A stretch of DNA of 64,000 nt from an uncultured Candidatus Rokubacteria bacterium (GCA_963826115.1 CAWGVS010000003.1:145211-209210), one strand, 5' to 3'. Counted from the first letter of the stretch, positions 54,423 to 57,688 are shown. Notes: generated by a model not told the origin, from the letters alone. Numbers and translations are program-made.

Positions 54423-54522
54423 CGACGGCGCAGGATTGGGGTCGCGTGAGGCCGTCACACAGGGCGAGCGTTGTCCGCCAGCCCCCATGGGACCCGACCG
54501 AAGGGGCGTTATGTCGACTACC
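54423..54522 (+). repeat. About 100-bp repeat, copy A1, ending in a dif-like 28-mer (54492-54519)
   Basis: Near-identical to 56432-56533; core ACCCGACCGAA-GGGGCG-TTATGTCGACT. Confidence 0.9.
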
Positions 54523-54599
54523 ATCGCGCCGCGTCGAGGAGCGGGGCCGGCTACAGGAGCGACTCGCCCCCTGGGAGGGGGAGGTCCGCGGGGAATCAG

Positions 54600-55505
54600 A
54601 TGCGGGACGCGCCGACCGCTGACCTGGTAAGCGTCGCCCTGTGCGCGCGGGACGCCGCGGCATTCGTTGTCGAGGCCGCGCGCAGCGTGCTCGGGCAGAG
54701 CTGGATGCGGCTCGAGCTCTTCATCGTGGACGACGGCAGCGCCGACGACACATCGCGCCGCGTGCGGCAGGAGATCGCGGACTCCCGCGCCACGCTGATC
54801 CGGCTCGAGAAGAACATCGGCACCTATGCCGCCAAGAACCTGGTCCTCGACCGATTCGCCCGCGGCGAGTTCTTCGCGCACCAGGATGCGGACGACCGGA
54901 GCCTGCCCCGCCGCCTGGAGCGGCAAATCACCGCGCTGCGCGCGTGGGGCCTCGAGGCCTGCGGCACCGGCATCGACGAGTTCTACGCGGACCCCGCCCT
55001 CGAGCCGCGCTTCTCGAGACAGGTACCCGCCCGCTTCGAGCCACTCGACGGCTGCTTCCACAAGCAGAACCTTTACCCCGAGCGGCTCGACCCGCGCGCG
55101 CTCTGCGATCCGGGCACGCGCGTCGAAGATCTCGTGCTCGCGATGAATGGCTCGTTGCTCTTCCGCAGCGAGACGCTCCGCGCGCTCGGCGGCTTCGAGG
55201 GTCGCACGCGCGTGGGAGCCGACACGGATCTGCTGCTGCGGCTGGCCTGCCTGCATGCCGTCGGGAACGTTCCGGAGGTGCTCTACGTGCGCCGCTTCCA
55301 CCCGGCCTCACTCACGGCCGCGCCCGAGACCGGCTTCGGCTCGAGGATCCGCCAACGCGCGATCCGGGAGATCGAGGCGCTGCGGGCAGAGCTGGGTCCC
55401 CTGCTCGAGGCGGGAGAGACCGCAGAGCTGCGCCGCGCCGCCGTGCGCGACCTCTACTACCCGGAGGTAGCCTGCGAGGTACGACCCCTCGCACCCGGCC
55501 ACTAG
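54600..55505 (+). CDS. Glycosyltransferase family 2
   Basis: ELFIVDDGSAD, GTYAAKN, HQDADD, GADTD. Confidence 0.9.
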   Translation: MRDAPTADLVSVALCARDAAAFVVEAARSVLGQSWMRLELFIVDDGSADDTSRRVRQEIADSRATLIRLEKNIGTYAAKNLVLDRFARGEFFAHQDADDRSLPRRLERQITALRAWGLEACGTGIDEFYADPALEPRFSRQVPARFEPLDGCFHKQNLYPERLDPRALCDPGTRVEDLVLAMNGSLLFRSETLRALGGFEGRTRVGADTDLLLRLACLHAVGNVPEVLYVRRFHPASLTAAPETGFGSRIRQRAIREIEALRAELGPLLEAGETAELRRAAVRDLYYPEVACEVRPLAPGH

Positions 55506-55508
55506 CCC

Positions 55509-55600
55509 ATGTGCAGCATCGCCGGAGTCGCAGGCGCCATCGACGAACGCGAGCGGCTCGCGCGGGAGATGGCGCAGGCCATGCACGACCTTCGAGATCC
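55509..55600 (+). pseudogene. N-terminal fragment of a class II glutamine amidotransferase (AsnB-like)
   Basis: MCSIAG start directly after the GT2 gene; similarity lost after about 27 aa. Confidence 0.55.
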
Positions 55601-55859
55601 TGCTCACGTTCACGGCGCTGGATCTGGCGCCACGGATTTCAGCCCCAACGAAAACTTCAACTTCCGGGGTCGCCGAGCTGGCCTTACGCGGAACCGGCTG
55701 CCGAACAGACGCTCCACATTCCCGACTGGTGCAGGTGCACGACCGAGTATCCGCCGTGCCCTTGGAGGATGGCTGGGCCGGATGATCCCCATCTGGGACG
55801 CCTGTCAGACGGCGAACCCGCTCCGTCGGTACCGCCCGCCCGAGCCGCGGTGATGCCGG

Positions 55860-56138
55860 ATGGCGATCTGGCGAAGCCGGCAGCCACCTCATCCGGTGAC
55901 GCAGGCCTCCCAGACCCTGTACGAGTTCGAGCTGAGTCAGGCGCCCTCGGCGGCCTGGCAGGCCGCCTTTCTGCGTCCCTCTGTGGCCCTCACCACGGCC
56001 AAGCACATGCCCGAGCTCGGCCGCGTCAGCCTCGATGGCGCCCGGGTCACCTTCCAGACCAGTCCGTCCCAACTCCACCAGTGGGTCCACTGGATCGACC
56101 GCTGGATCGCCTACGCCAACTCGGTGGCGGACGAGTGA
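55860..56138 (+). CDS. Hypothetical protein
   Basis: Protein-like composition (LYEFELS...WIDRWIAYANS); start uncertain. Confidence 0.6.
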   Translation: MAIWRSRQPPHPVTQASQTLYEFELSQAPSAAWQAAFLRPSVALTTAKHMPELGRVSLDGARVTFQTSPSQLHQWVHWIDRWIAYANSVADE

Positions 56139-56431
56139 CCCTGGCTGGCGCCCGATGGCGGAGGGAAGACTGAGACGACACGCGGTGCTCGCGAAGGTCG
56201 GGAACTGGCCCGGGCTGATGGGACCGGCGGATCGGTCATGCGCGACAGATCGTGCGCGCGGTTCTGGTCGGGCGCATCGGGTTCACCCCATCGCGCCCTG
56301 ACGACCCCTGGTCTCACGGGGGCGCTCGATCTCTAGACTCGCTGTGGCGGATCGGGCCCGCCCGTGCTTCCCCGCGCCGAAGTCGTGAACGCCGCGATCC
56401 CACCCCGTGCCGTCCTTGACACCCTCCGCGC

Positions 56432-56533
56432 CGACGGCGCAGGCTTGGGGTCGCGGGAGGCCGTCACGCAGGGCGAGCGTTGTCCGCCAGCCCCCATGGG
56501 ACCCGACCGAGAAGGGGCTTCATGGCGACTACC
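56432..56533 (+). repeat. About 100-bp repeat, copy A2, ending in a dif-like 28-mer (56503-56530)
   Basis: Core CCGACCGAGAA-GGGGCT-TCATGGCGACT. Confidence 0.9.
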
Positions 56534-56556
56534 CACGTTCCCGGGGAGGTGTGCCC

Positions 56557-57015
56557 GTGCCAGTCGATCGCACGTATGCAACTGAGAACGATGCACAGCG
56601 GGAGCGGCTTCGCGCCCTTGTCCGGAGTCTCGGCGACCAGGACCTCGCGCGCCCCATGGAGGCCGGCTGGACGGTGGCAGCAGTCCTCGCGCACGCCGCC
56701 TTCTGGGATCAGCGGATCGTCGTCCTGCTCGACCACTGGGAGCAACGGGGTTCCTCGTGGACCCCGCCCATCGAAGTGGAGCGCGATGGCGACTGGATCA
56801 ACGATGCCGCGAAGGCGCTCTGCCTGGCCCTCCCGCCTCGCGTGGCGGCCGACCTCGCCGTCTCGGTCGCCGAGGCGGTGGATCGGCGGGTGGCCGCGGT
56901 GAGCGACGCCATCATCGAGGCGAATGCGCGGGCTGGCTCTCCGCTCAACTGGCACCGCGCGGAGCACCGGCGCGAGCACCTGGACGAGATCGAGCGAGCG
57001 CTCCGCGGCGCCTGA
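56557..57015 (+). CDS. DinB / mycothiol-dependent isomerase N-terminal-like protein
   Basis: GGAGGT RBS; GWTVAAVLAH..FWD; HRREHLDEI. Confidence 0.8.
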   Translation: MPVDRTYATENDAQRERLRALVRSLGDQDLARPMEAGWTVAAVLAHAAFWDQRIVVLLDHWEQRGSSWTPPIEVERDGDWINDAAKALCLALPPRVAADLAVSVAEAVDRRVAAVSDAIIEANARAGSPLNWHRAEHRREHLDEIERALRGA

Positions 57016-57035
57016 TCCCCCGATGCGCTTCTCCG

Positions 57036-57081
57036 GGCCCCCCGGGGGAAACAGCTCAAAACGAGCTTCATGTCGACCACC
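57036..57081 (+). repeat. About 45-bp repeat, copy B1, with a dif-like 28-mer (57051-57078)
   Basis: Core ACAGCTCAAAA-CGAGCT-TCATGTCGACC; near-identical to 57645-57688. Confidence 0.9.
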
Positions 57082-57099
57082 TACCGGTAGTCTTACGTA

Positions 57100-57645
57100 A
57101 TGCGCCCCCTTCGGTATTCCATCAACGTCACATTGGACGGGTGCTGCGATCATCGTGGAATAGTCGCCGACGAAGACTTGCATCGTCACGCGGTCGAGAA
57201 CCTCAACCGGGCCGATGCCCTCCTCTTTGGCCGGGTGACTTACGAAATGATGGAGGCAGCGTTTCGGCCAGCGTGGACGGGAGAGATGCTCGATTGGATG
57301 GAACCCTTCCGCCGTACGATTGACGCGGCAAAGAAGTACGTCGTGTCGAGCACGTTGAAGCGGGCCGATTGGAACGCGGAGCTCGTGCGCGGGGATCTGG
57401 GGACGGCCGTTCAGCAGCTCAAGCGGGAGTCGGGCAAGGGACTGTTCGTGGGAGGCGTGAAGCTCCCGCTGGCGTTGGCGGAGCTGGGATTGATCGATGA
57501 GTACGAGTTCGTGGTGCAGCCCAGTCTAGCGGGCCATGGGCCGACGTTGTTCGCGGGGCTATCGAAGCGTATCGACTTGAAACTCGTAAGCCGGCTGGAA
57601 TTCGGCTCGGGGGCGGTGGCGATGCGGTATGAGCCGAGAAGGTAG
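57100..57645 (+). CDS. Dihydrofolate reductase / RibD C-terminal family protein
   Basis: SINVTLDG, LLFGRVTYE, KYVVSSTL, GLIDEY, GHGPTLF. Confidence 0.92.
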   Translation: MRPLRYSINVTLDGCCDHRGIVADEDLHRHAVENLNRADALLFGRVTYEMMEAAFRPAWTGEMLDWMEPFRRTIDAAKKYVVSSTLKRADWNAELVRGDLGTAVQQLKRESGKGLFVGGVKLPLALAELGLIDEYEFVVQPSLAGHGPTLFAGLSKRIDLKLVSRLEFGSGAVAMRYEPRR

Positions 57646-57688
57646 GCCCCTGGGGAAACAGCTGAGAACGAGCTTCATGTCGACCACC
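57645..57688 (+). repeat. About 45-bp repeat, copy B2, with a dif-like 28-mer (57658-57685)
   Basis: Core ACAGCTGAGAA-CGAGCT-TCATGTCGACC, starting at the stop codon of the preceding gene. Confidence 0.9.

Follow-up and report, generated by a model that had tools for sequence, protein, structure and literature searches.

Single genes in an uncultured Rokubacterial genome lie between probable orphan right ends of an IS91-family rolling-circle element

The window analysed here is a 64-kb stretch of DNA (G000:C3:145211-209210) that reaches the end of contig C3 in the assembly G000 of an uncultured Candidatus Rokubacteria bacterium (6.24 Mb, 12 contigs, 72% G+C). Four co-oriented copies of a repeat divide part of the window into gene modules, and the repeats are probably orphan right ends of an insertion sequence (IS) of the IS91 family (Table 1). 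Pfam places the GT2, DinB_2 and RibD_C genes in the intervals to which an earlier sequence-only reading of the locus had assigned a glycosyltransferase with stubs, a single DinB gene and a single RibD_C gene. The same reading had put an "asnB stub" between the glycosyltransferase and the second site; an open reading frame (ORF) is present there, but it has no Pfam match. The first residues of this ORF, MCSIAG..., presumably resemble the N-terminus of asparagine synthase. The DNA of the hypothetical ORF that follows has matches of 73–74% identity at several loci of related genomes (query 4207-4653 in G014 and G004). The glycosyltransferase ORF as listed overlaps the first repeat copy, and its start codon is uncertain. 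The likely start codon of the DinB_2 gene is GTG, at 56551 or 56557, and is preceded by GGGGAGG.

Table 1. Features of the array in the window, in their order along the DNA, and further IS elements of related genomes, with the interpretation given in the text. E, expectation value; GC3, G+C content at third codon positions; nt, nucleotides.
Feature	Coordinates	Strand	Description
End copy 1	54423..54522	+	100-nt fragment of IS91-family right end, long class; nhmmer E 4.4e-12
GT2 glycosyltransferase ORF, module 1 cargo	54471..55505	+	PF00535 E 6.7e-17; GC3 0.89
Short "asnB stub" ORF	55509..55853	+	no Pfam match
92-aa hypothetical ORF	55860..56138	+	no Pfam match
End copy 2	~56270..56533	+	~264-nt right-end fragment, long class; nhmmer E 1.1e-13
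DinB_2-family gene, module 2 cargo	ORF 56407..57015, likely gene 56551..57015	+	PF12867 E 5.7e-6
End copy 3	57040..57081	+	minimal 42-nt end, short class; nhmmer E 8.9e-8
RibD_C-domain gene (dihydrofolate-reductase-like), module 3 cargo	57100..57645	+	PF01872 E 1.6e-11
End copy 4	57647..57688	+	minimal 42-nt end, short class; nhmmer E 1.6e-11
Other IS in or beside ends or modules	L042 5171-6493; L043 2647-3690, 4329-5342; L029 9728-11572

All four sites proposed by the sequence-only reading are present on the plus strand. The motif TYATGKCGACY has four matches in the window, all on that strand, at 54509, 56520, 57068 and 57675, compared with a mean of 0.30 matches in 100 shuffled sequences, none of which reached four. 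The sites had been described as 28 nt long, but the repeats to which they belong are longer; that of site 2 covers ~264 nt and starts near 56270. Sites 1 and 2 have 79 nt in common with 96% identity (54423-54501 and 56432-56510), and sites 3 and 4 have 42 nt in common with 93% identity. When the long copies are aligned, the repeat extends over ~330 nt in window site 2 and in the copies at 80.5 and 83.9 kb of contig C1. The sharp right limit that had been noticed at the four sites holds throughout the family: similarity among all copies ends 0–3 nt past ...GACYACC. The right-hand coordinates of the end copies in Table 1 mark where the four sites of the window end. The core of end copy 1 spans 54476-54522 and is followed by the bases ATCG. 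End copy 2, which is 86% identical to the C1 copy over query positions 160-420, contains a TTGACA box and the arrangement GAGAAGGGG-N6-ATG, and is followed by CACG. End copy 3 begins 25 nt past the stop codon of the DinB gene, is predicted to form two small hairpins, and is followed by TACC. End copy 4, the final end of the array, begins 1 nt past the stop codon of the RibD_C gene and is followed by CTCA.

The repeat family is dispersed beyond the array, as found in the genome-wide profile scan that the sequence-only reading had proposed. A search of G000 with an nhmmer profile, built partly on the very copies that it counts, identified 18 copies of the end, 16 of them with E<=1e-4. Seven of the 18 are located on contig C1 (108 kb), and those at 80.8, 84.2 and 85.2 kb form a second array of co-oriented ends. 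The copies belong to a long class, which ends in ...GTTGTCCGCCAGCCCCCATGGGACCCGACCGAGAAGGGGCTTYATGTCGACTACC, and a short class with the sequence CCCCNGGGGAAACAGCTGAGAACGAGCTTCATGTCGACCACC; both classes have one common sharp right edge, ...TTYATGTCGACYACC. From left to right, the end can be divided into three parts. The left part is a putative palindrome of a C-run and a G-run (CCCCCATGGG, CCCCGGGGG, CCCCTGGGG and others). It is followed by a short putative stem around GAGAA, located directly before TTYATG. The arms of this stem are AGCCCC...GGGGCT in long-class copies and AGCTC...GAGCT in short-class copies, and the stem persists in both classes with one compensating change. The rightmost part is the conserved TTYATGTCGACYACC, which abuts a C(T/A/C)C-N tetranucleotide: of 29 aligned copies, 16 have CTC as the three bases past ...GACYACC, and 22 fit C[T/A/C]C. 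The distance between ends and stop codons is not constant in the genome as a whole and follows no general rule. Some copies from different genomes have DNA past the right edge in common (L046/L047 compared with L031 and L068: ...AGCAGGCT..., ...TTCTATGAAGCGGCC...), and these sequences suggest that a longer target is preferred or, alternatively, that the assumed edge is not the limit of some elements.

The position of the longest copies connects the repeat to IS91-type transposases. At 83.9 kb of contig C1, the full repeat runs directly on from the C-terminus of such a transposase (...FAIDVLTCLRCDGRLRVIATVEDP...), the frame of which ends in ...FAIDVLTCLRCDGRLRVIATVEDPLAVRQILAAAPLGPGPP. This C-terminus aligns with residues 411-490 of an intact relative at 63% identity. 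Fragments of transposase genes are present in G000 at C1:83721-83945, immediately upstream of the full repeat, and at C1:75100 and C1:89473. The related genome G003 contains two intact transposase genes (G003:C3 and G003:C12), the products of which have the Zn_Tnp_IS91 (PF14319) and Y2_Tnp (PF04986) domains with E values of 1e-19 to 3e-22, and the site is present downstream of both; an intact G003 gene is that of locus L033 (3627-5102, minus strand). No inverted, reverse-strand copy of the site is located upstream of these two genes, which is compatible with the two unlike ends of IS91. A survey restricted to one genome per species yielded 31 transposase loci from genomes titled as Candidatus Rokubacteria, Methylomirabilota and several other phyla. 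The C-terminus and at least 490 nt of downstream DNA are retained at 14 of the 31 loci, six of which carry Rokubacteria or Methylomirabilota titles and eight those of other phyla. At four of the six Rokubacteria or Methylomirabilota loci, a site on the same strand follows the transposase gene at +243 to +285 nt; one of the remaining two has a site at +1698 and the other has none. In a set of 41 related genomes, 14 have no transposase match, and all 14 also lack a match to the terminal 47 nt. G038, an unpublished entry in the transposase search, supports no statement made here. The full element is composed of a gene for a transposase with a zinc ribbon and a Y2 (HUH) domain, ~250–300 nt of conserved non-coding DNA, and the terminal piece.

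We conclude, with a probability of about 0.78, that the four sites are orphan right, oriIS-like ends of a Rokubacteria/Methylomirabilota rolling-circle IS of the IS91 family, and that they bracket captured genes. Contig C1 looks like a mobile-element graveyard or island, because three fragments of transposase genes and seven of the 18 ends are concentrated there. Just upstream of the transposase remnant, at G000:C1:82950-83700 (L001 9172-9698), are the frameshifted remains of the C-terminus of a large serine recombinase.

The copies differ in length in a nested manner. The four ends of the window, of 100, ~264, 42 and 42 nt, have a common right edge and are cut at different positions on the left. 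Copies in the 41 related genomes, located with a 426-nt query, have left limits at query positions 121, 160, 205, 212, 293, 299, 305, 320 and, most commonly, 377, and most of them end on the right at positions 407-424, less than 20 nt short of the query's end. Tetranucleotides at the left ends of the shortened copies could not be called, since the BLAST limits are too fuzzy. Similar fragments have been described for IS801: right-end miniatures of 229, 360 and 679 nt with a common right terminus accounted for 26% of insertions, and the element was able to bring along upstream DNA (PMC3189936). For the IS91 family, another account reports that one-ended transposition makes up 1–14% of events, that the ends are without an inverted repeat and 82 bp of the right end are enough, and that oriIS ends have one or two subterminal palindromes, which are imperfect, and depend on the tetranucleotide next to them (PMC13181058).

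Modules of the kind found in the window recur in other genomes. The array in G008:C75 has four ends on one strand, with single genes between them that encode a glyoxalase-family protein, a GNAT acetyltransferase and a cupin. The array in G008:C95 reads long end, RibD_C, end, DinB, end, and thus has the reverse gene order of the window; the 3' end of its RibD_C gene is interrupted by an IS110-family element. DinB genes are 97–98% identical to that of the window in G014:C12 and 82% identical in G008:C95. In G014:C12, the identity of 97–98% extends from the tail of the upstream end, through the gene, into the downstream short-class end, and the right-hand neighbour of the module differs from that in the window. 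The RibD_C gene has counterparts with 89–93% identity at seven loci in six other genomes, and a partial eighth in G004. All of the arrays examined, namely those of the window, C1, G008:C75, G008:C95, G004:C28 and G004:C11, have the genes between ends pointing in the direction of the ends. The cassette-like, modular character that the sequence-only reading had ascribed to the array is thus upheld by DinB and RibD_C modules that recur elsewhere in a different order, but the Xer mechanism to which it was attributed is not.

Other mobile elements were observed in or beside the ends or modules of relatives: IS110-family elements at three loci and an IS630-like DDE_3 element at one (Table 1). The IS630-like element is that of G014:C12, where it interrupts, at a TA, the short-class end downstream of the DinB module.

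The RibD_C gene has additional peculiarities. In four soil and plant metagenome runs, its summed contig depth exceeds that of the adjacent genes by factors of tens to hundreds, and 57095-57100 and 57645 are the exact positions of loose ends. Three relatives (L041, L044 and L045) have a different repeat, TAGCCATCGG... / CCATCGGGCTTTAGCCCGAGTCGG, on either side of the gene. The gene may be widely mobile, in a cassette-like setting of another kind. A single contig with a 58-nt skip inside RibD_C was disregarded.

The manner in which the array was built can be proposed by analogy with the published biology of IS91 and IS801. The transposase would nick the boundary between the end and the tetranucleotide, and one strand would be displaced leftwards until a tetranucleotide resembling the terminus is reached. 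An early stop would produce a miniature end, and a late stop would carry upstream DNA along as a "gene + end" module. New units may insert beside the tetranucleotide past an existing end, which would stack them head to tail. Module 1, with its glycosyltransferase gene, cut-short asnB-like stub and 264-nt end, has the appearance of an arbitrary piece of flanking DNA that was captured. In all probability the array no longer moves by itself, and is either a fossil or movable only with transposase supplied in trans, because G000 holds transposase fragments only.

Several observations weigh against the assignment of the sites to an IS91-family element or against the capture of genes by it. The search of G000 for an intact transposase gene returned fragments only. 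Seven of the eight transposase loci from other phyla are without the site, save for one noise-level match, by both profile and regular expression, and L055, from another phylum, has a weak site match (E 0.41 at +222). The two intact copies of the element align only from ~30–70 nt upstream of the ATG, so that the left end is not definable. The adjacent CTCN is unlike the targets CTTG, GTTC and GTCC published for the IS91 family. Single-stranded DNA folding of the sites gives energies no better than those of shuffled sequences (z -0.88 to +1.45), and the palindromes are therefore argued from their persistence across variants and from the one compensating change. RibD_C genes are found without an adjoining end at five loci (G003, G001, G004:C10, G010 and G014:C10), and the distance from the RibD_C stop codon to the end is 1 nt in the window and 40 nt in G008. 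Because of these end-less loci and the varying spacing, ends and genes do not always travel as a fixed unit. Public sequencing runs containing at least part of the stretch numbered 20 of the 22 listed; the contigs examined, from four runs, are too short to bear on excision or empty sites, and they bridge no module boundary, skip no module and show no circular or excised form.

The assembly of the array, as distinct from the identity of its ends, could have followed another course. Miniature IS91 ends may have been inserted singly between the genes of a variable region, the differences in gene order may have arisen by homologous recombination between ends and through other IS, and "gene + end" units would never have moved as cassettes. 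This course is unlikely, although it fits the facts that most RibD_C copies in relatives have no adjoining end, that many copies are solo 47-nt ends, that IS110-, IS630- and rve-type elements lie in or beside ends, and that DinB and RibD_C both have another stop-to-end spacing and another class of end in G008 than in the window. Furthermore, the authors of the IS801 study ascribe most genomic fragments to reorganisation and not to one-ended transposition (PMC3189936). However, single insertions do not readily account for the DinB module of G014, which is conserved from one end to the next yet has another right-hand neighbour, for the resemblance of module 1, with its cut-short stub and 264-nt end, to a captured flanking chunk, or for the agreement of gene direction with end direction. 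A further reading, also rather unlikely, is that in Rokubacteria/Methylomirabilota the minimal 42–47-nt end is the recombination site of a true cassette system, with an HUH/Y2 transposase acting in trans. Single genes tagged with the end might then be stacked head to tail beside ends already present, reshuffled, and passed from one species to another, and the outward TTGACA box of the long form might drive their transcription.

Two further explanations concern the nature of the repeat itself. According to the sequence-only reading, the sites are decayed dif-like targets at which XerC/D, or another tyrosine recombinase, moves circular gene modules, and this is very improbable. Direct repeats do bracket single genes, and the genome encodes three full-length tyrosine recombinases, elsewhere than the array; XerC/D-like proteins are encoded at C5:943k, C5:828k and C1:1k. 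The right arms of the sites, TTATGTCGACT and, at C12:610k, TTATGTAAACT, are ones that we take to resemble XerD arms, and cargo such as DinB, RibD_C, GNAT, glyoxalase and cupin genes is, we assume, usual in integron cassettes. Nevertheless, the sites are physically the terminus of an IS91-family element, and repeats that are the ends of a known IS or of a miniature inverted-repeat transposable element had been named by the sequence-only reading itself as incompatible with its proposal. Matches to dyad symmetry between the arms number 7, 3, 3 and 2 of 11, compared with a background mean of 3.15 (standard deviation 1.53), which leaves three of the four sites, with 2–3 of 11, at or under background, and none of the four has an ATAA-N6-TTAT core. 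The class-specific differences span the entire site to its right edge, so the sites are not two-half hybrids produced by an internal crossover. Tyrosine recombinases (PF00589) have eight matches in G000, the nearest to the C1 array being 79 kb away; contig C3 contains none, and no recombinase gene adjoins the array of G008:C75. The sole ATAA-N6-TTAT palindrome of G000, TCACTTCATAA-GACCTG-TTATGCGGTCG at C12:615674-615701, lies 5 kb from one end copy and is not credible as a conserved host dif, because it has no match within 3 mismatches in 40 relatives. A relaxed dif scan of the genome returned nothing convincing, and the GC skew on C12, C3, C1 and C2 is too weak for placement of the terminus. 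The spacers around the ends contain no attC-like long palindrome and no core boxes, and the idea of an attC site with an inserted IS91 end was rejected on this ground.

Even less probable is that the repeat is a dispersed promoter and leader that supplies a TTGACA box, the ribosome-binding site GAGAAGGGG and an ATG to the gene downstream. The long copies do contain CTTGACA and have GAGAAGGGG 6 nt before a conserved ATG, outward promoters are reported for ISCR1 ends (PMC6218425), and at C2:103240 the ATG of the end begins a 244-aa ORF (GC3 0.92) that is a 5'-truncated GT87 gene. However, the 42–47-nt copies are without the TTGACA part, a consensus promoter scan does not call the long end, and in the window the ATG of the end opens a frame other than those of DinB and RibD_C, which runs into stop codons. 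An Rfam scan of 53000-59000 gave a chance CRISPR-DR match only (E 0.72) and no leader known to Rfam. An outward promoter would, moreover, be a property of a transposon end and not an alternative to one. The copy concerned is on the minus strand, within the region G000:C2:102506-104612 (L002 6507-8613), where it provides the ATG of the truncated GT87 glycosyltransferase gene. It adjoins an rve-type transposase gene that has its own 20-nt inverted repeats and scores under the cut-offs of both the IS481 and the IS3 models. The repeat was also considered as an end of this rve-type IS, an interpretation that was dropped because the inverted repeats of that IS, gcctcaaaaccggtgttacc/ggtaacacccttttgaggc, fall inside the repeat boundary.

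Identification of the sites as IS91-family right ends removes the Xer-driven integron as a false lead. It also defines the end sequence and the adjacent tetranucleotide of an IS91-family lineage that had not been characterised before, from a soil phylum of uncultured bacteria. The orphan ends group small genes (DinB, RibD_C, GNAT, glyoxalase and cupin) into compact, co-oriented modules, the order of which varies between genomes. If the modules do move as units, rolling-circle transposons would offer soil bacteria a second means, comparable to the integron, of accumulating single genes and trading them. Were the minimal end to be the site of a cassette system, that system would be a working analogue of the integron, with rolling-circle chemistry in place of the tyrosine recombinase.

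Elsewhere in the window, positions 61223-61960 contain 3.7 tandem repeats of a 198-nt unit (66 aa) with 88–91% identity. The repeats are inside a minus-strand ORF (61004-62176) of 390 aa that belongs to no Pfam family, and the GC skew falls to -0.19 in this kilobase.

The array can be compared with four known systems. Integron arrays and clusters of attC sites lacking integron-integrases (CALINs) are similar to it in that co-oriented single genes are each followed by a short repeated site with a sharp boundary, the types of cargo are alike, and the order of cassettes varies between genomes. In contrast to integrons and CALINs, the array has neither RYYYAAC/GTTRRRY boxes nor an imperfect palindrome of 57–141 nt, no IntI gene is present, and its site is a transposon end served by a different class of enzyme. 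The dif sites, pdif modules and integrative mobile elements exploiting Xer (IMEX) have in common with the array a TTATG-containing 11-mer and direct repeats around modules. The sites that bound pdif modules are oppositely oriented, whereas the sites here all have one orientation and are linked to an HUH transposase rather than to Xer; three of the four are without dyad-symmetric arms, and an ATAA/TTAT core pair is not present.

Insertion sequence common region (ISCR) elements, known from complex class 1 integrons, are closer, as a rolling-circle origin end bounds captured genes, repeated copies have unrelated cargo between them, and the end may contain outward promoters. In ISCR arrays, however, most copies still have their transposase gene, and the cargo is resistance genes on proteobacterial plasmids. 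The copies described here are chromosomal stubs that lack a transposase gene, their host is a soil bacterium, and their cargo consists of small genes of the housekeeping type, among which no antibiotic-resistance gene was identified.

The elements IS91, IS801 and IS1294 are closest in organization to the element described here. Their Y2/HUH transposase has an N-terminal zinc-binding domain, and their two ends are unlike and have no terminal inverted repeat. The right end, located 3' of the gene, has short subterminal palindromes, to which the putative palindromes of the present end would correspond, and abuts a conserved tetranucleotide; nested right-end fragments have one terminus, and upstream DNA can be carried along. 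A search of the literature on IS91 ends, one-ended transposition, gene capture, and IS and integrons of Rokubacteria retrieved no description of this lineage, and that on IS91 and Rokubacteria retrieved no arrays of orphan IS91 ends for the phylum. The minimal copies, of 42–47 nt, are far below the 229-nt miniature of IS801 and the 82 bp sufficient for IS91, as given in the two accounts cited above. Differences from the IS91 family are, in addition to the adjacent tetranucleotide, the new end sequence TTYATGTCGACYACC, the uncultured Rokubacteria/Methylomirabilota hosts, and the head-to-tail arrays that the ends form around single genes. Therefore, the locus probably represents gene capture by a known kind of transposon and not a new Xer-driven integron, and the IS91-family member itself is new and Rokubacterial.

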